From positions 1-46,337 of IMG/VR virus record IMGVR_UViG_2740892428_000001: DNA of 46,337 bases; one strand, written 5' to 3'. Source of the stretch: a virus. Taxonomy: Duplodnaviria; Heunggongvirae; Uroviricota; Caudoviricetes. The position numbers and the translations under genes are program-made. Shown here piece by piece: positions 1 to 9,310 of this stretch. Positions within the stretch are counted from its first letter, which is position 1. Each line of letters opens with the position of its first letter. Below the pieces are notes generated by a model. That model had not been told where the DNA came from, ran no database searches, and was given only the letters and a program-made list of their open reading frames with translations.

Positions 1-234
1 ATGAAATCAAAAGACACCCTAAAGTGGTTCCCCGCGCAGCTTCCTGAAGTCAGAATTATCCTGGGAGATGCTGTCGTGGAAGTGGCAAAACAGGGAAGAC
101 CTATCAATACCAGAACATTGCTTGATTACATTGAAGGAAACATAAAGAAAAAGTCATGGCTGGATAACAAAGAATTATTACAAACAGCGATATCAGTTCT
201 TAAAGACAACCAAAATTTAAATGGTAAAGTGTAA
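1..234 (+). CDS. ydfK: YdfK/YnaE-like small prophage protein (77 aa)
   Basis: 77-aa ORF starting at window position 1; resembles the small cold-shock-inducible YdfK/YnaE proteins that sit beside pin in E. coli Qin/Rac prophages (recalled, not searched). Confidence 0.45.
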   Translation: MKSKDTLKWFPAQLPEVRIILGDAVVEVAKQGRPINTRTLLDYIEGNIKKKSWLDNKELLQTAISVLKDNQNLNGKV

Positions 235-613
235 TAAACACCCCCTGAAAAATAATTTTTCAATGCATTAAAAAATATCAACAACTACGTTATGCCGCAA
301 CAACCTACTTTTTTACCATTTTTCCACTTTAACAACTTTTTGCTCCACTTTTCCAAGACCAAACAAATTGAAATCTGGCTAAAACAACATACAACACTAT
401 TATTCGTCTTTCTCGAGTCCGCCCGGAGTTCGAAAAACAAACCGAGTTAAAGCCATTTTTCAAAAAATCGATTTTGGGTTACACCAAAATTACGGGACTG
501 CATCCGAATTTGTTTATTTTCGAACGTATACATACAAATATGTGCAATAATAAGCGAAATAATTTTTGGATATGCATTATGATATGTACACCAATTTCGT
601 ATAGAGTCTCACT

Positions 614-1204
614 ATGTCTCGAATTTTTGCTTACTGTCGGATATCAACTCTGGATCAGACCACCGAAAATCAACGCCGGGAAATCGAAAGTGCAGGTTTT
701 AAAATCAAACCTCAGCAAATAATCGAAGAACACATTAGCGGCTCAGCAGCAACCAGTGAGCGTCCTGGTTTTAACCGGTTGCTTGCTCGCCTGAAATGTG
801 GTGATCAATTGATTGTGACAAAACTGGATCGCCTTGGTTGTAATGCAATGGATATCAGGAAAACAGTGGAACAACTGACCGAAACAGGTATCAGAGTGCA
901 TTGCTTAGCATTGGGGGGCATTGACCTGACCAGTCCAACAGGAAAAATGATGATGCAAGTAATTTCAGCAGTCGCTGAATTTGAACGAGACCTTTTACTT
1001 GAACGCACTCATTCCGGGATAGTAAGAGCCCGGGGCGCAGGGAAACGTTTTGGTCGACCACCTGTGTTAAATGAAGAACAGAAACAGGTGGTATTCGAAC
1101 GAATTAAGTCAGGTGTAAGTATAAGTGCCATTGCCCGGGAATTCAAAACCTCGCGGCAAACCATTTTAAGAGCCAAAGCAAAACTTCAGACACCTGACAT
1201 ATAA
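614..1204 (+). CDS. pin: serine recombinase, Pin/Hin/Gin-type DNA invertase
   Basis: 196 aa; N-terminal catalytic motif YCRISTLDQ with nucleophilic Ser, resolvase/invertase core, C-terminal HTH ([16 protein letters not shown]); sits beside the tail-fibre genes as in Mu, P1, e14 and Qin. Confidence 0.85.
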
Positions 1205-1431
1205 AAAATAATCTCGGTGTGAGATGCTTTACGTCTTCCAAGCCCCCTTCCTTGCCGTAAATGGAAAGATACATCTAATTATAGAATTTATATGTTTTAC
1301 CCTACGGCCGTGCTGGCCATTCAATATCCTGTGCAGTTGACGTATCAACACGGTTCAGCAACACCCGATACTTTTTCCAGGCTTCCAGCAACGGGGTTTC
1401 TTCCTCCGTTGCATATACAGCTCACCTTTTT

Positions 1432-1725
1432 TCACCCACGATTAACCAACAGCCAGACCAGCAGACACGCCACCACCGGCACAGCAAAATCTATCAGGCT
1501 TGCCACATCCCAAACACGCGGATCAAAACCGCCCCACCACGGCATGTTAATCCGCTTGCCATGCCCGAACATTTCAATCCAGCGATATTCTGCCTGGGTG
1601 TGTTCACGCGCAATGAAGAACGTACAACCGGCTATCGCCCCGTAAACCCAGTTTCCGGTAAAAAGACCAATCATTACCTGCGCAGCCACAGCACAAAGCG
1701 CATGAAGAAAAGGTGTTATATCCAT
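1432..1725 (-). CDS. hypothetical small membrane protein
   Basis: 97-aa ORF with two hydrophobic segments (ALCAVAAQVMIGLFTGNWVYGAIAGCTFFIA and LIDFAVPVVACLLVWLLV); family not recognised. Confidence 0.4.
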   Translation of the reverse strand: MDITPFLHALCAVAAQVMIGLFTGNWVYGAIAGCTFFIAREHTQAEYRWIEMFGHGKRINMPWWGGFDPRVWDVASLIDFAVPVVACLLVWLLVNRG

Positions 1726-1735
1726 TACTCCTCCT

Positions 1736-2440
1736 TTATCCGATATCGCTTTGGGAAGTTGATAACAACTTCAATTCTGACTCAAGTTCATCAACTCTTT
1801 CAGTCAGTTTCTGGATATGGTGAATCAGTGGAACAACCAGACGTTCGTACATTACACCTTCGGCAACAAGGCCATTGCTGGAAATGGTTTCCGGTGCATC
1901 ATCTTCGTTGGCTGGTCGCCAGTGAACAAACTGAGGGGCAATTTCTCCTACTTCCTCGGCAATCAATCCATAGAATCCCCAGTCACGCCTGTCATTTTCG
2001 CATTGCGACCTGTACCACACAGGGCGCATCCTGAAAATGAGATCGGCGTGCTCTGAATCTATCGTCTCTACTGAATGTTTATAGCGGATAGACGATGTTG
2101 ACCGCAGCACAGACGAAATTGCAGGGTCAGGATTAAGATAAAGATTTGCCGCCGCTGTAGTTGTGCCCAATCCCCATAAATAAAACGCTTCACGGCCAGT
2201 CAGCGGGTAAAAATCTCCGCCATAACGACCACTTTCCAGATCGTTCACTTCCACTTTGTTTTTCAGCTTATTATCCACTTCTGTTTTTGTGTATCTGGTA
2301 CTGATATCCTGCTTTGCACTGTCCATATCAGTCTGAAGCGTTGATACTTTTACGTTAATTGAGGAAATATCTTCCTTTGCCTTACTGACATCTCCCTTTA
2401 GCGTTTTGATGTCATCAGGAATTACTGTCGATGTAGCCAT
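1736..2440 (-). CDS. tail-fibre-like protein with C-terminal intramolecular chaperone (peptidase S74-like) domain
   Basis: 234 aa; N-terminal coiled-coil-like segment; C-terminal region (RPVWYRSQ...DWGFYGLIAEEVGEIAPQFV...GLVAEGVMYERLVVPLIHHIQKLTERVDELESEL) matches the pattern I recall for the endosialidase/tail-fibre self-cleaving chaperone domain. Confidence 0.55.
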   Translation of the reverse strand: MATSTVIPDDIKTLKGDVSKAKEDISSINVKVSTLQTDMDSAKQDISTRYTKTEVDNKLKNKVEVNDLESGRYGGDFYPLTGREAFYLWGLGTTTAAANLYLNPDPAISSVLRSTSSIRYKHSVETIDSEHADLIFRMRPVWYRSQCENDRRDWGFYGLIAEEVGEIAPQFVHWRPANEDDAPETISSNGLVAEGVMYERLVVPLIHHIQKLTERVDELESELKLLSTSQSDIG

Positions 2441-2449
2441 TTTTCTTCC

Positions 2450-2731
2450 TCACATCCAGCTACGGAGTTGATGCTCAACAGCAACCGCGTGTTCATCGAA
2501 TAATGACGATATTTGCGAATCATTAATGATGCGCACATTTACAAAATATCCGTCCTCCTTAACACATACCGGCTCGCCATCTTCAGTAAGTTCTCCGGTT
2601 TCTTTGTACACATTACCTATCACGTCAATAAGAATATCATCCTGCATCGACTCGTCATCATAATAGCCAATGCTCTCCATAAAGGCCGAAAAGTCGGCCC
2701 TGTCTGCAAATTTGAGTGTTAAATCTTTCAT
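2450..2731 (-). CDS. hypothetical protein, translationally coupled to stf
   Basis: 93-aa acidic ORF whose start overlaps the stf stop by 4 nt (2728-2731); no recognisable domain. Confidence 0.4.
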   Translation of the reverse strand: MKDLTLKFADRADFSAFMESIGYYDDESMQDDILIDVIGNVYKETGELTEDGEPVCVKEDGYFVNVRIINDSQISSLFDEHAVAVEHQLRSWM

Positions 2732-5130
2732 TTAATACTCCCCCCCATTTGCGCATCAGTTAATTCTTTATGCCAGAGACGAAGATTTCTCAAATGGCCG
2801 AATAGATGACGAGTTCCCGATGTGGCTTGACCTCCAATTCGAATAAAGGTCCGTGTTTTTACGCCCGTCCACTCCGTTTTCATAGTTTTAGTAGCCTCAC
2901 CGTTAGAAACTACTCGTTTAGTACCATCAGAATAAATATTAAAACCACCAATGAATTTTCGAACATCAGTTCGACCAGCAAACACACTAGAAACGTAAGT
3001 ACTTGTCGACGCTTTATAAGTTTGCATATAAAGCTGACCGTAATATTTCTCAGTTGTGTTAAAAGCGTATGTAATTGACTCAATAGGTGGCACACCAGAA
3101 AAATCAAAAATACGCGGTGCTACATTAGGAGGAATATCGCCCCAATTTCTATTAACCTCGACAAGACACGTAAGCGGTCTATTATAGATATTATTTTCAG
3201 TTGGGATCGTCACCATATCACTGGAGCGGGTTGCGGGTGCAGTTGTCGTAATAACAAAAGATGAAGCACATCCGCCGTTTTCAAATTGTGGTGTTGCAAG
3301 GTAAATATAATCTCCCGCTTCAGTTATACCACCTTTTTTCGGCGCATACTGAATCATTGCGCCAATTAAGGTTTCACCTTCAACAGCTTCTATAGTTGCC
3401 TCATAGAAAATCCACCCTGTAACCGGATCTTTAGTTGCAGTAGCTGCTATTCTATTGGCTGCTCCGCCAGTTTTTTCTATTATCAGAGTTCCGAAAGTTA
3501 AATAAGCATCTCCTAAAAATGTATAAACCGACCCATCGTATTTTTCAAAACGCAAACGACAACGAAGACCATCAGGAGCTTTAACCCTGCATGAAACAGT
3601 GCAATACTTATTATCGCCACTAACATCAATCCCCCGGGATGCACTGCATGTATGCAGACTAAGTGCAGATGATTGTCCTGTCATATTATCTTTTGTTCGC
3701 ATTTTGGCATATGAAAAACCAAATTCATCAACACCATTATTAGTTTTATCGATATTGCTGGTACTCGTCCATTCAGCGGGAGTATTGGATTTAACAAAAT
3801 AGTTAGTGCGCTGTCCTTCAATCAATAAACCTTCTTTTTCAAATCGTGGTTCATCAATTTTAGCAACACTAAATACGCCTGATTTATTGATATATGTGGC
3901 AGTTGATGCGCGTTTAAACTTAACAACCTTGTCGCCAGGCATCGTTATTTCATCATCACCAATAACAATTTTTTTATATGACGGCGAAAAGCCCGTAATC
4001 ATATCCAGTGAATCGTTAAACGGTATCCACACATCAGGCAGTGGCTGTAAGACATATTTATACGGCTCTGCTGCCTGGCTTGCATACTCTCTGGCTGCGT
4101 CTTCACTTGCTTTAGCTGCTGTCTGGCTTGCTGCCGATGCTTTCGCCGAGTTCGCCGCTGCAGTCTCGCTTGTCTTTGCATTGGTTTCACTGGTTTTTGC
4201 TGCTGTTTGACTGTTGGCTGATGCAGTGGCAGAAGCAGCCGCCGCGCTTGCAGAACCAGCTGCAGCACTCTCGCTTTGGGCTGCTGCATCCTGACTGTTT
4301 TTCGCCGCAGTTTCGCTGGTTTTGGCATTCGTTTCGCTGGTCTTCGCTGCCGTCTGGCTGGACTTTGCGTTAGTTTCACTCGTCTTCGCAGCTTTCTGGC
4401 TGTTAGCCGCAGCAGTTGCTGATCCAGCTGCTGAAGTCGCAGAACCGGCTGCCGCGCTCTCGCTTTGGGCTGCTGCAACCTGACTGTTTTTCGCCGCAGT
4501 TTCGCTGGTTTTGGCATTCGTTTCGCTGGTCTTCGCTGCCGTCTGGCTGGACTTTGCGTTAGTTTCGCTCGTCTTTGCGGCTGTCTCGCTGTTTTTCGCG
4601 TTGGTTTCTGATTTTTTGGCTGCTGTCGCGGAGTTTGCCGATGCAGTCTGCGAGGACGCTGCCGCCTGTGCGCTGTTAGCTGCATTCGTTTCTGAGGTTT
4701 TCGCCGCGTTCTTCGATGATGCCGCTGCAGTTTCGGATTTCTTTGCCGCCGCTGCGCTCTGAGAGGCGGCTTCGGCGTTGCGTGCCGCTTCTTCCACCAT
4801 TGCCTCAAAACGACGCAATGCCTCCGGCATGACATCATCTTCCGTCATGGCACCGAGAAAATCATTCAGCGTACCTGGTCTGGAACCTTCATAGACGGTA
4901 ATGGTTCCGGCATGTGAAGGCGGAAAACCTTCAACCAGCAGGGTGACGCTGTACTGGCCATGCTCAACATCCATGCTGTAACGCCCGGCTTCATCCGGAT
5001 TTTCAGAGGCCACCGTGTTCACCAGTACCGTGGTGCTGTTACGCTTTGCCTTCAGTTGAATAGTGCAGTTCTGTATTGGTTTTCCCGCACCATCTTTCAG
5101 CACACCTGAAATCTGTACTGCCATATTCAC
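2728..5130 (-). CDS. stf: side tail fibre protein, mosaic: lambda Stf-like N-terminus plus Ala/Ser/Thr-rich repeat shaft plus unrelated C-terminal domain
   Basis: 800 aa; N-terminus (MAVQISGVLKDGAGKPIQNCTIQLKA...) near-identical to lambda Stf as recalled; central TAAKTSETNAK-type low-complexity repeats; C-terminal ~330 aa unrelated to lambda Stf. True start may be the Met 2 codons downstream (5124). Confidence 0.85.
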   Translation of the reverse strand: MNMAVQISGVLKDGAGKPIQNCTIQLKAKRNSTTVLVNTVASENPDEAGRYSMDVEHGQYSVTLLVEGFPPSHAGTITVYEGSRPGTLNDFLGAMTEDDVMPEALRRFEAMVEEAARNAEAASQSAAAAKKSETAAASSKNAAKTSETNAANSAQAAASSQTASANSATAAKKSETNAKNSETAAKTSETNAKSSQTAAKTSETNAKTSETAAKNSQVAAAQSESAAAGSATSAAGSATAAANSQKAAKTSETNAKSSQTAAKTSETNAKTSETAAKNSQDAAAQSESAAAGSASAAAASATASANSQTAAKTSETNAKTSETAAANSAKASAASQTAAKASEDAAREYASQAAEPYKYVLQPLPDVWIPFNDSLDMITGFSPSYKKIVIGDDEITMPGDKVVKFKRASTATYINKSGVFSVAKIDEPRFEKEGLLIEGQRTNYFVKSNTPAEWTSTSNIDKTNNGVDEFGFSYAKMRTKDNMTGQSSALSLHTCSASRGIDVSGDNKYCTVSCRVKAPDGLRCRLRFEKYDGSVYTFLGDAYLTFGTLIIEKTGGAANRIAATATKDPVTGWIFYEATIEAVEGETLIGAMIQYAPKKGGITEAGDYIYLATPQFENGGCASSFVITTTAPATRSSDMVTIPTENNIYNRPLTCLVEVNRNWGDIPPNVAPRIFDFSGVPPIESITYAFNTTEKYYGQLYMQTYKASTSTYVSSVFAGRTDVRKFIGGFNIYSDGTKRVVSNGEATKTMKTEWTGVKTRTFIRIGGQATSGTRHLFGHLRNLRLWHKELTDAQMGGSIK
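4268..4645. repeat. in-frame tandem duplication (2 x 189 bp) inside stf
   Basis: 4268-4456 and 4457-4645 are near-identical over ~125 bp (ctctcgctttgggctgctgca...gactttgcgttagtttc); period 189 bp = 63 codons. Confidence 0.8.
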
Positions 5131-5182
5131 TCCACAAATAAAAAAGGCACCATTTCTGGTGCCCGTATCTGGGTTATAAAAT

Positions 5183-8100
5183 TCAGCTAATCGTGATGCC
5201 TGCAGTGGCTTTCTTCATCACCACAACCAGCAAATCGCTGATACTTGCTGTGGGATACCAGTCATTTACCAGCCATGCTGACACCGAAAACTCCAGCGTC
5301 ATGTGACCGTGACCGGCAGGCATATCAATAACGCCACTGTAAATCAGCGTATTATCCAGCGCGGTACGGTTATAAATTTCAGCACCGTTTTTCCGCACTA
5401 TCAGACGGCATGAGGAGTAAATATCAGTATGCTCTCTCTCATGTTTAGCGCCGCTGAATGCCACCGCCGGAATAACAATCTGCCGGTCAAACGGCTGATC
5501 GTCATAAATCCTGACGGTAATGGTCCCTGATGGCCACCGTTCCGGTGCACGGGAGTCCCGGGGGAAAGCTTTGCCCACTGTTTTAACGAGATCGCCTTCA
5601 ATCTGGTTCGCGGACAGTTTTCCCAGAACCCGGCAGTTCTCGTTAATCGTGACGTTGTTGAGCGTCCCGGAGTTCGCATTCACGTTACCGCTGATATCCG
5701 CATTTTTAGCGGTCAGCTTTCCGTCTGATGTCAGGGAAAATACCGGAGGACTGCCACCACTGGTAATGGTGGGGGCCGTCAGGCGCTTCAGGAACACGTC
5801 GTTCATGAATATCTGGTTGCCCTGCGCCACAAACATCGGAGTTTCATTCCCGTTTGCCGGGTCAATAAACGCGATACGGTTAGCGGCAACCAGAAACTGA
5901 CTCAGTTTGCCTTCCTCCGTGTCCTCCATGCTGAGGCCAAGCCCCGCGACATAATGCCTGCCGTCTTCGGTCTGCTCAATTTTGACGCCCCACATGGCAT
6001 TCCATTTATCGTTGGCGTCTTTCCACTCTTTCGAAAACTCCTCCAGTTTGCTGGCGTTATCCTCCGTCAGCTCGACTTTTTCCAGCAGCTCCTTGCCGAG
6101 ATGGGATTCGGTTATCTGGCCTTTGAAAAAATCCAGGTAACCTTCCGCATCATCGCTCGCCCGACCAACAGCCTCCACGAATGCCGATTTGCCGACGGTG
6201 TTCACACTGCGGATATAAAAGTAATAATCACGGCCCGGTTTGATATTGGTACTGGCGGCTATCCAGTACAGCGCCGTGCCAAGATAGCGGGCTGTGGTTT
6301 CAACCTGTCTGATATCAGCAACCCGCTTTTCCGAGAACCAGAACTCAAACTGTACCGTCGGGTCATAAACGGCAAGATGCGGCGTGGCGGTTATCTGAAA
6401 ATAGCCCGGCGTCAGCTCAATCCGCGACGGTGCTGCCGGTGCGGCAATCCGGAACGATACCGATGCCGGATCGCCCTGCTGTCCCCACGCATTTGCCGCC
6501 CGGACTGTCAGCCTGTAGTTCCCCAGCGCCAGCTGCCTGAAGCGGTATGTGTTTTCCGTCGTCCTGGCCGTGCTGACCAGCCGCTCACTGCCGTCGTCCG
6601 CTGCCACGGTCAGGCGAAGCATAAAGCTCACCCCCTTCACCACCTTCGGCGTGTCCCAGCGCGCCAGCACCTGATATTCCCCGCTGTCTGCGGTGACTTC
6701 GGCAGTCAGGTGCTGCACTGCTGGCGGCGTGACACCATTCACCGTGCCGCTCTGGTCGCCGTCAAAGTGCGCCCCGTTATCCACGATGGCTTCTTTTTCC
6801 GGTACATGCTGCACGGCGGTGATGGCATACGTGCCGTCGTCGTTCTCACGGATACTCACGCAGCGGAACAGGCGCTGGCGCAGCGTCGGCAGCTTCAGCC
6901 CCCACACGCTGTATCCGGCAACGCCGTCAGGAACACGACTCACTTTTACCTTCACGCCGTCGGTGACGGACTGGACCTCCACGCTGACCGGATTGCCACT
7001 TCCGTCAACCAGGCTTATCAGCGTGGTACCGGAGGATGGCAGCGTGATTTCACGGTCGAGCGTCAGTGTCCGCGTCTGGCTGTTCACCGCCAGCACGCGC
7101 CCGCCGATGCTGATACCCGCATAGTCATCATCGCAGATTTCAATGACATCGCCCGGCACATGGCGAAGCCCTTCTGCGCCCACGCTGAAGTCCACGGTCT
7201 GCGTTTCCAGCAGTTCCGTTTTAATCAGCCACAGCCCGGCACGGTGTGCCTGCCCCCGACTGGTACAGCCAAAGGCATCCATCTTCGTGACGTTACGACC
7301 GTAACGGGCAATGGCCTGCGTGTCCTCCACAAGCTCTGTTGCCGTTTCCCAGCCGTTATCCGGGTCAATCCAGTTCACCTCAACGGCATTATGACGGTCC
7401 TTCAGGGCGCTGAAGCTGTAGCGGAACGGCGCGCCATCATCCGGCATCACCACATTACTGCGGTTATAGGTCCACACCTTATCCGATGGCCGGTCCTGCA
7501 CGAACGTCAGCGTCTGCCCGTTCCATACCGGCATACAGCGCATCGCCGAGCAGAAATCACTGAGCACATCCCACGCCTTGCGCTGTGTGGTCAGGTACGC
7601 ATTACAGGTAATGCGCGGCTCCGTGCCGCCAAAGCCGTCCGGCACTGACTGGTCGCAGTACTGGCCGATGACATACAGCGCCCATTTATCCACATCCGCC
7701 GCACCAAGACGTTTCCCCATGCCGTAGCGCGGATGGGTCAGCATATCCCACAGACACCAGGCCATGTTGTTGCTGTATGCTGGTTTTAACGTTCCGTCCC
7801 AGATACCGCTGTATTGTCGCGTCTGCGGGTTATAGTTCGACGGCACCTGCAGAATGCGCCCGCGAAGATGATAATTACGACTCACCTGCTGGCTACCGAA
7901 CTGCTCCGAGTCCACCTGTACGCCGACCAGTGCCGTGTTCGGGTAGCACTGTTTCACATCGATGATTTCGGTGTATGACGACCAGAGCGTTTTGTTCTGC
8001 AGCTGGTCTGTGGTGCTGTCCGGCGTCATCCTGCGCATCCGGATATTAAACGGGCGCGGCGGCAGGTTATCCACCACCACTGAGGCCAGATACTGCGAGG

Positions 8101-8578
8101 TGGTTTTACCCTTAATGGTGATGTCTTTTTCCGTCACCCAGCCACCGTTACGTTGTATCTGAACCAGCAGGCGGACTTCCGATGGATTCCTGTCCCCCTT
8201 TGAGGTGGTTTCCACCAGTGCCTGCACACCGAAGGTAAAGCGCAGACGGTCGATGTTTGCCGACGTGATGGTGCGGGTGATCGGCGTGTCATATTTCACT
8301 TCCGTACCCAGCACCGTCTCGGAACCGGAGGATTCAAACCCCTCCGGCGGAGTCTGCTCCTGCTCACCGGCCCGGAACACCACCGTGACACCGGCGATGT
8401 TGGTATTCCCTTCACTGTCCAGCACCGGCGTACTGTTCAGCAGCACGCTTTTTAATCCATCCACCGGACCTTCTATCGGCCCTTCGCTGATGGCATCGAT
8501 CACACTCAGTAACTGCGTGGATTTCAGGTTGTCCTTCGCTTCGCGCGGGGTATGCCCCTTATTGCTGCCTTTACCCAT
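5183..8578 (-). CDS. J: tail tip / host specificity protein J
   Basis: 1131 aa; N-terminus [24 protein letters not shown] and overall sequence match lambda J as recalled; position between I and stf. Confidence 0.95.
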
Positions 8579-8638
8579 TCGTCATGCTCCATAAACGACA
8601 AAACCGCCCGCAGGCGGTTTCACATAAAACATTTTGCA

Positions 8639-9310
8639 TCAGCGACCAATCACCACAACCTGACCACCATCCCCTTCGTCTGCCGTGCTGATCTCCTGAG
8701 AAACCACCCGCGACCCCACACGCATTTCACCGTACAGAACAGGCAAAACATTGCCCTGGGCAACCATGTTATCCAGTGAGGAGAAATAGGTGTTCTGCTT
8801 ACCGTTATCCGTTGTCTGTGTGCGGGGAGTTCTGGCTTTCGGTGCCAGCATCTGAGCCACACCGCCGAGCACCATACTGGCACCGAGAGAAAACAGAATG
8901 CCGGTCATACCACCGGCCCCAATGGCTGTCCCCCATGCTGCAAGGGTGGCTCCGGCGGTAAAGAATGATCCGGCAATGGCGGCTGCCCCCAGGACAATCT
9001 GGAATACGCCACCTGACTTGGCCCCGGCGACTCTGGGAACGATATGAATCACAGCGCCGTCAGGCAGAGCCTCATGTAACTGCGCCGTTAATCCGGACGT
9101 GCTGACATCCTGCCCGGCAATACGTACCTGATACCAGCCGTCGCTCAGTTTCTGACGAAACGAAGGGAGCTGTGTGGCCAGCGCCCGGATGGCTTCAGCC
9201 CCCGTTTTCACACGAAGGTCGATGCGGCGGCCAAATCGTTGTAAATCCCCGTAAAGGCAGATGCGTGCCATGCCCGGTGACGCCAGAGGGAGTGTGTGCG
9301 TCGCTGCCAT
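8639..9310 (-). CDS. I: tail tip assembly protein I
   Basis: 223 aa, same length as lambda I; glycine-rich hydrophobic C-terminal half; overlaps the K 3' end as in lambda. Confidence 0.9.
   Translation of the reverse strand: MAATHTLPLASPGMARICLYGDLQRFGRRIDLRVKTGAEAIRALATQLPSFRQKLSDGWYQVRIAGQDVSTSGLTAQLHEALPDGAVIHIVPRVAGAKSGGVFQIVLGAAAIAGSFFTAGATLAAWGTAIGAGGMTGILFSLGASMVLGGVAQMLAPKARTPRTQTTDNGKQNTYFSSLDNMVAQGNVLPVLYGEMRVGSRVVSQEISTADEGDGGQVVVIGR

Follow-up and report, generated by a model that had tools for sequence, protein, structure and literature searches.

Would a fibre chaperone domain, which normally ends a long tail fibre, still serve a fibre when it is encoded by a short gene of its own? 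This question was raised by orf234, a 234-codon open reading frame (ORF) in the side tail fibre locus of IMG/VR virus record IMGVR_UViG_2740892428_000001. The window, i.e. the whole stretch of DNA that was analysed (46,337 nt, positions 1 to 46,337 of the record), is an Escherichia coli lambdoid prophage with exact chromosomal matches, for example in strain 631. orf234 lies on the minus strand, with its ATG at 2440 and its stop codon at 1736–1738.

In lambdoid phages, host recognition begins with a reversible step that is set by the side tail fibres, and these are the parts that are swapped to retarget phage-derived particles. An earlier inspection of the letters alone (the sequence-only reading) had offered three explanations for orf234: the distal part of a split fibre, a second short fibre, or a fragment left by recombination. 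The first of these was the best supported in the present analysis. We propose, with a probability of roughly 0.6, that a multi-protein side tail fibre includes the orf234 product as a self-chaperoned distal or branch subunit.

S74 domains, their self-cleavage and fibres built from several proteins are all known already; orf234 itself is a previously uncharacterised member. For this gene family in lambdoid and T1-like phages, a literature search found statements at the level of annotation and structure prediction only. Databases call the homologues 'chaperone' or 'hypothetical protein', and the evidence presented here favours a structural fibre subunit.

Domains of orf234 and their relatives

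The sequence-only reading had claimed an S74-like chaperone domain in orf234, preceded by only about 120 residues. Both points were borne out. Residues 116–172 scored 27.3 bits (E=4.6e-6) against Pfam PF13884 (Peptidase_S74), for which the gathering score is 22. Ser116 and Lys121 did not vary in either of two alignments, of 32 and 38 homologues. They are the S74 catalytic dyad at its usual spacing of five, and the scissile bond is predicted to be Ser115–Ser116. The S74 domain forms the final 119 residues; ahead of it lie a heptad coiled coil and a tip, with 115 residues in all preceding Ser116.

The AlphaFold2 (AF2) monomer of orf234 had a mean pLDDT (predicted local distance difference test score) of 75, with values of 85–95 over residues 120–234. 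The model showed the chaperone fold with its long C-terminal helix, and it matched the solved chaperones of endoNF (3gw6), the GA-1 neck appendage (3gud) and T5 pb1 (4uw8). These three share with orf234 the S74 fold, the Ser–Lys dyad and the C-terminal placement of the domain. In them, S74 ends a virion-anchored spike or fibre of 800–1400 aa, whereas in orf234 it ends a mini-fibre of 115 residues encoded by a separate gene. A sequence search of the PDB matched orf234 to a T5-like L-shaped tail fibre (8hqz, E=4.9e-7), and the PHROG matches (3299, 454 and 1699) were tail-fibre C-termini. One copy of the 234-aa gene in another locus (L022, 6292–7017) carried a 7-residue duplication (AEEVGEI) within the chaperone domain.

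Ahead of the tip, AF2 placed helices at residues 9–48 and 52–62, with a pLDDT of about 90 over residues 11–40. The sequence showed the a/d hydrophobic pattern of a coiled coil in this region (I11, L14, V18, A21, I25, I28, V32, L35, M39, A42 and I46). A 227-aa allele (L054) was shorter by exactly one heptad, VSKAKED being missing. The tip segment that follows was kept ahead of the same chaperone subfamily in hundreds of fibres.

A scan of 1.84 billion representative proteins returned 1604 matches to orf234 at E<=1e-10. Nearly all of them covered only residues ~80–227 of the query, and the aligned region was the C-terminal end of the matched proteins, which were 180–1280 aa long. The closest long-fibre matches, lambdoid Stf proteins among them, covered residues 45–234 at 55–61% identity, and the long fibres with orf234-like ends were of 540–1240 aa. 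For example, the lambdoid Stf P0306 (735 aa) was 61% identical to orf234 residues 45–224 and had, from its sequence, a PF08400-type N-terminus. The 588-aa protein P0308 ended in ...KLLSVSRSDIG, as do other prophage copies of the 234-aa gene; the end in the window, ...KLLSTSQSDIG, is two residues off this variant. Unlike the arrangement in the window, the fused lambdoid Stf is a single polypeptide with a lambda/T4 gp37-like receptor region before the module, and it comes without the 93-aa product and the plug. Since the tip and chaperone (residues ~45–234) form the C-terminus of bona fide long fibres, this part of orf234 is the end of a fibre rather than an enzyme or a free chaperone.

Among the same scan matches, the N-terminus of orf234 was matched only by T1-like stand-alone proteins. 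The full-length relatives above ~54% identity were all stand-alone proteins of 221–269 aa. Hence the idea that the ORF is fused to a longer fibre elsewhere held for the C-terminal ~180 residues, at 55–61% identity, but never for the N-terminal ~45. The tip and chaperone are thus a common fibre end, which in orf234 is joined to a ~45-residue plug and coiled coil to give a separate protein.

The gene was intact and widespread. The same 705-bp gene was present in the complete genomes of three named, plaque-forming phages whose deposits state the host, at 100% identity in PhiR49_1, 93% in IdasGreatGrand and 91% in PhiR55_1. One 90%-identity protein cluster contained 2928 sequences. Of 5426 complete E. 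coli genomes, 740 carried orf234 at a coverage of at least 80%, under the annotation 'tail fiber domain-containing protein'. The ratio of nonsynonymous to synonymous substitution rates (dN/dS), calculated pairwise against six diverged alleles, was 0.16–0.23 for the whole gene, 0.12–0.44 for the N-terminal part, 0–0.18 for the tip and 0.07–0.23 for the chaperone. By these values orf234 is under purifying selection, with constraint on all three regions. Truncated copies of 189, 90 and 157 aa, resulting from frameshifts or stops, were seen in three cryptic prophages (L043, L057 and L087, respectively); these are ordinary prophage decay.

A recurrent three-gene cassette with exchangeable parts

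The sequence-only reading had placed orf234 downstream of stf. It is downstream, but not directly, as the 93-codon orf93 intervenes. The same order was found in about 40 T1-like phages (Drexlerviridae, Tempevirinae), where a lateral fibre gene is followed by a ~92-aa gene and an S74 gene of 225–231 aa. The T1-like phages KarlJaspers and PeterMerian carry all three, with identities of 46% for the Stf C-domain, 54% for orf93 and 59% for orf234. The homology of Stf to the T1-like fibres covered the C-terminal ~445 residues, starting from the motif AEPYK..LQPLPDVWIPFNDSL. The ~92-aa gene came immediately behind that of the lateral fibre in 181 phage records, which included lambdoid, T1-like, Dhillonvirus, Seuratvirus/Nonagvirus, T5-like and rV5-like phages. 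Homologues of orf93 included VogelGryff gp23, IrisVonRoten gp23 (39% identical) and KarlJaspers gp36. In the Seuratvirus VogelGryff and the T5-like IrisVonRoten, the third gene (gene 3, which is orf234 in the window) encodes 388 and 574 aa, respectively, and both products end in S74. JakobBernoulli Gp36 was considered as a gene-3 homologue and rejected, being a single 741-aa fibre with a chaperone part only 23% identical.

In IrisVonRoten (BASEL Bas32), gp22, gp23 and gp24 follow the same three-gene order as the cassette in the window. Gp22 was 46% identical to the window Stf across the shaft and the whole C-domain. Gp24 had the same start motif (MVTKTVIPTDITKLK) and an S74 end. In published AlphaFold-Multimer modelling for the BASEL collection, Gp24 was placed as a distal fibre on the proximal Gp22, the C-terminus of which is a galectin-like domain (doi 10.1101/2024.09.12.612763). 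The two systems differ in their outer parts: the 574-aa Gp24 has two large receptor-binding domains in a 'T-shaped' arrangement, whereas orf234 has a coiled coil and a tip of ~50 residues; the IrisVonRoten proximal fibre has a T5-type collar anchor, whereas the window Stf has a lambda-type PF08400 domain.

The first 15–25 residues of orf234 (MATSTVIPDDIKTLK) were common to all gene-3 alleles. The motif MATSTVIPDDIKTLKGD also headed a 346-aa allele, KarlJaspers gp35 (MATVTNIPADITALK), PeterMerian gp29, VogelGryff gp24 (MAKTITNIPKDITNLK) and IrisVonRoten Gp24. Nucleotides 1–44 of orf234 were matched, alone, in about 240 further E. coli genomes.

Allelic variation was surveyed in 80 IMG/VR loci with an orf93 91–100% identical to that of the window, and in 30 more from a second scan. 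Stf core alleles of 45–100% identity occurred with the same orf93. Wherever the stored locus extended far enough, the gene after orf93 started with MATSTVIP.DI..LK and was either the 234-aa or the 346-aa allele. In the latter, ~200 globular residues precede a canonical S74 domain (SDRDLKDNI...; Pfam E=6.6e-14). The same Stf core (99–100% identical) was paired with the 346-aa allele in two loci (L033 and L039), and Stf cores of only 46–58% identity were paired with the 234-aa allele in three (L018, L036 and L067).

DNA comparison divided the locus into conserved joints and variable cassettes. The conserved joints were 5141–3800 (the 5' part of stf), 2846–2397 (the 3' end of stf, orf93 and 15 codons of gene 3) and 1726–1428 (orf97). 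The variable cassettes were 3800–2846 (the Stf core) and 2397–1736 (the body of gene 3), and DNA homology to the loci with the 346-aa allele stopped at window position 2397. The body of gene 3 and the Stf core are swapped independently, which is how a host-range cassette behaves. The variable Stf core is likely to be the primary receptor-binding module.

The ~92-aa protein came in two types that were ~50% identical, one including that of the window (loci L008–L087) and the other found in L090–L138, L143 and L006. The phage Lambda_2E9 and its group have a homologous Stf C-domain and a ~92-aa protein 50% identical to orf93, and no gene 3. In all 47 loci of this group orf97 directly followed the ~92-aa gene, and the homology of Lambda_2E9 to the window picked up exactly at the orf234 stop. 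Gene 3 is therefore optional, and its presence tracks the type of orf93: the window type was always followed by gene 3, the Lambda_2E9 type never (0 of 47 loci). This correlation hints that the ~92-aa protein co-evolves with the distal subunit.

orf93 had no match in Pfam or NCBIfam, and a profile search of PDB sequences was also empty. Our guess is that orf93 is an adaptor or assembly factor of the fibre. Because the window-type orf93 always precedes gene 3 and the divergent Lambda_2E9 type never does, it is conceivable, and here we are tentative, that orf93 and the gene-3 N-terminal motif (15–25 residues) form a universal plug-and-socket by which any S74-capped distal module could be clipped to a lectin-type proximal fibre. 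Such a connector would be common to lambdoid, T1-like, Seuratvirus/Nonagvirus and T5-like phages, and possibly to Dhillonvirus and rV5-like phages, where the ~92-aa gene only was seen. The 234-aa allele would then be the minimal natural distal subunit, serving as a second independently exchangeable binding tip.

Proposed assembly and alternative readings

As a distal subunit, orf234 would be co-expressed late with stf and orf93 from the tightly packed gene block. Three copies would trimerise via the C-terminal S74 domain (residues 116–234), which would template in cis the folding of the tip (residues 66–115) and the zipping of the coiled coil (residues 9–62). The Ser116/Lys121 dyad would then cut the Ser115–Ser116 bond, and the chaperone would be discarded. 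The expected product is a trimer of 115-residue chains with a stalk of ~8 nm and a small beta tip. The N-terminal motif would dock this stub onto the distal Stf trimer, probably with orf93 as the adaptor. Both the lectin-like core of Stf and the tip of gene 3 would be exchangeable modules of the finished fibre.

Trimerisation, folding in cis and cleavage are proposed because they are the established behaviour of S74 domains. To our knowledge, the S74 domain in all the proteins studied acts in cis, on the chain that carries it, before being cleaved off; cis action and release are established for endoNF, T5 pb1 and GA-1. Docking is proposed because of the conservation patterns and the published prediction for the T5-like homologue. 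As the motif is kept across unrelated tail tips, and the Stf C-domain and orf93 are what these phages share, the common partner should be Stf or orf93.

Several points weigh against a distal subunit. Residues 66–114 were poorly modelled (pLDDT <55) in the AF2 monomer, although this would be expected of an interlaced trimer. The tip was ~70% identical between lambdoid and T1-like phages; for a tip that binds receptors, such conservation in place of hypervariability is unusual. The mature part, of 115 residues, would be tiny. The AF2 model of orf93 had a pLDDT of 43, from a shallow alignment of 19 sequences, and was unusable. With regard to attachment, the modelled chains were monomeric, and the docking of the T5-like homologue is itself a prediction. 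Finally, the Lambda_2E9 group dispenses with gene 3.

If the distal-subunit reading is true, about one-seventh of sequenced E. coli strains carry a prophage with a side fibre made of two parts, whose two modules can be exchanged separately. The N-terminal motif and the 93-aa protein would then provide a connector for grafting distal receptor-binding modules without Tfa. This conserved connector, with its possible use in fibre engineering, is the main interest of the locus.

The first alternative is that orf234 is an independent second short fibre, a virion appendage whose anchor is not Stf but, for instance, the tail tip or orf93 by itself. orf234 has its own start, N-terminal module and shaft, as such a fibre would, and branched or multiple fibres are common. 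In the T5-like DT57C, the second fibre protein LtfB is borne by the first, virion-anchored LtfA, whose S74 end matches orf234 (8hqz). LtfB is large and sets O-antigen specificity; its likeness to orf234 is one of architecture. An anchor elsewhere than on Stf is difficult to reconcile with a motif conserved in lambdoid, T1-like, Seuratvirus and T5-like phages despite their differing tail tips. Moreover, gene 3 always accompanies the Stf C-domain and the ~92-aa gene, and the published model of the T5-like homologue puts the gene-3 product on the proximal fibre. We consider an independent fibre unlikely.

The second alternative is that orf234 acts in trans as an assembly chaperone that replaces Tfa in helping the Stf C-terminal domain to fold or trimerise, and is not part of the virion. 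S74 is a chaperone domain, orf234 sits in the block that took the place of tfa, now reduced to a remnant, and BASEL annotators call the homologues 'putative lateral tail fiber chaperone'. Against this, the characterised S74 domains are all cis-acting. A dedicated Stf chaperone would not be expected to be missing beside a homologous Stf C-domain, as it is in Lambda_2E9 and 47 of 47 related loci. Nor does the pairing of alleles suggest one, as one Stf C-domain allele (99–100% identical) goes with either gene 3, and one gene-3 allele goes with Stf cores of 46–58% identity. The N-terminal plug and coiled coil are under constraint and would be superfluous for a free chaperone. This alternative is also unlikely.

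The last alternative, a functionless and decaying 3' fragment of a longer fibre gene, as in the suggestion of a remnant of recombination, would account for the likeness of the C-terminal ~180 residues to the ends of 540–1240-aa fibres, for the alignment of orf234 to columns 1147–1384 of the 1385 in PHROG 3299 and for the truncated copies in cryptic prophages, but is contradicted by the identical length (705 bp) in active phages, the dN/dS of ~0.2 in every region, the gene's own ribosome-binding site, the N-terminal module that it has in common with other stand-alone gene-3 alleles and its frequency among E. coli genomes.

Neighbouring genes and origin of the locus

The features of the locus are collected in Table 1. 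On the minus strand, the order is J, stf, orf93, orf234, orf97 and the tfa remnant.

Table 1. Positions of the genes and of the orf234 and Stf segments in the window
Feature	Positions	Strand	Codons/residues	Remarks
J	5183-8578	minus		
stf	2728-5130	minus	800 aa	proximal side tail fibre
Variable Stf core	2846-3800	minus	~aa 444-762	exchangeable cassette; homology breaks at ~3800 and resumes at ~2846
orf93	2450-2731	minus	93 aa	phrog_1361; small conserved companion protein
orf234	1736-2440	minus	234 aa	putative stand-alone mini tail-fibre protein
N-terminal motif MATSTVIPDDIKTLKGD	2390-2440	minus	codons 1-17	proposed docking plug
Heptad coiled-coil shaft	2255-2416	minus	codons 9-62	AF2 and a/d pattern
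Small distal tip before cleavage site (...GTTTAAANLYLNPDPAISSVLRSTS)	2096-2245	minus	codons 66-115	
Peptidase_S74 chaperone	1739-2095	minus	codons 116-234	Pfam, dyad, AF2 model matches
Ser116	2093-2095	minus	codon 116	
Lys121	2078-2080	minus	codon 121	
orf97	1432-1725	minus	97 aa	phrog_1443, unknown function
tfa remnant	1305-1412	minus	last 36 codons	lambda-type tfa
pin-like recombinase	614-1204	plus		Resolvase and HTH_7
ydfK	1-234	plus		

The spacers between stf, orf93, orf234 and orf97 were -4, 9 and 10 nt, the stop codon of stf overlapping the start of orf93. Ribosome-binding sites were present in both the 9-nt and the 10-nt spacers, that of orf234 being GAGGA in the 9-nt gap after orf93. 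No terminator-like sites were found on the coding strand among these four genes. A terminator-like hairpin was present on the coding strand at 5145–5164, between J and stf. The same interval (5131–5182) has no lom, which is present in close relatives (strain 631, PhiR49_1 and IdasGreatGrand).

orf93 and orf234 were in one frame, with TGA and three sense codons between them (2441–2452, minus strand). A readthrough fusion of the two was considered and rejected; the frame relation is lost in KarlJaspers and VogelGryff and was judged a coincidence.

The mechanical ORF of stf starts with GTG at 5130 (MNMAVQ...), but the probable true start is ATG 5124 (MAVQISG...), on which the Pfam match, lambda Stf and RefSeq agree. 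The N-terminal anchor of Stf matched PF08400 with E=6e-67 and is followed by an Ala/Ser/Thr-rich heptad shaft. Within the shaft, a tandem duplication at 4250–4593 (189 bp or 63 aa, 1.8 copies, 94% match) was found, with an underlying heptad periodicity of 21 bp. This repeat explains the 736-aa and 799-aa classes of otherwise identical Stf. The C-terminal domain of ~445 aa is lectin-like, and matched NCBIfam NF048003 (GTA_spike_fiber, a head-spike-fibre domain) at residues 436–636; its final 357 residues had no match among PDB sequences.

The absence of a Tfa-type gene, as claimed from the sequence alone, held in that an intact tfa is missing, but its last 36 codons persist. The remnant was 89% identical to lambda Tfa residues 156–191 (tblastn), and RefSeq labels it a pseudogene for tail fiber assembly that lacks the N-terminus. 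It sits between orf97 and the recombinase gene, and it follows orf97 in Lambda_2E9 too. None of orf93, orf234 and orf97 matched a Tfa family in Pfam or NCBIfam. The 5' half of stf is lambda-like, with 57% identity to lambda orf-401 over residues 1–291. Lambda Stf–Tfa occupies the same genomic slot, and lambda Stf has the same N-terminal anchor domain and shaft type as the window stf. Lambda needs a separate Tfa, whereas in the window tfa is cut short and Stf has a different distal half, a lectin-like domain.

The position of the tfa remnant and the lambda-like 5' half of stf indicated that a lectin-type cassette replaced the ancestral Stf end and Tfa. The comparisons indicate that the replacing unit would have consisted of the lectin-type Stf end, orf93, the optional gene 3 and orf97, and its right-hand junction would lie inside tfa.

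orf97 has three hydrophobic stretches. In lambdoid phages it always closed the block, whether or not gene 3 was present, and it was missing from the T1-like and T5-like cassettes. It is probably not a fibre part, and may be a membrane moron or an exclusion gene.

An invertible segment run by the pin-like recombinase was also considered. It was rejected, as the fibre genes are all on one strand and no significant inverted repeats that could be Gin/Pin-type crossover sites were found within window positions 1–9000. The recombinase, ydfK and the tfa remnant matched a Qin/Rac-type prophage backbone, on which the recombinase looks like an orphan invertase. The recombinase gene came after orf97 in other prophage loci as well (L008, L011, L067–L070, L073 and L075–L077).

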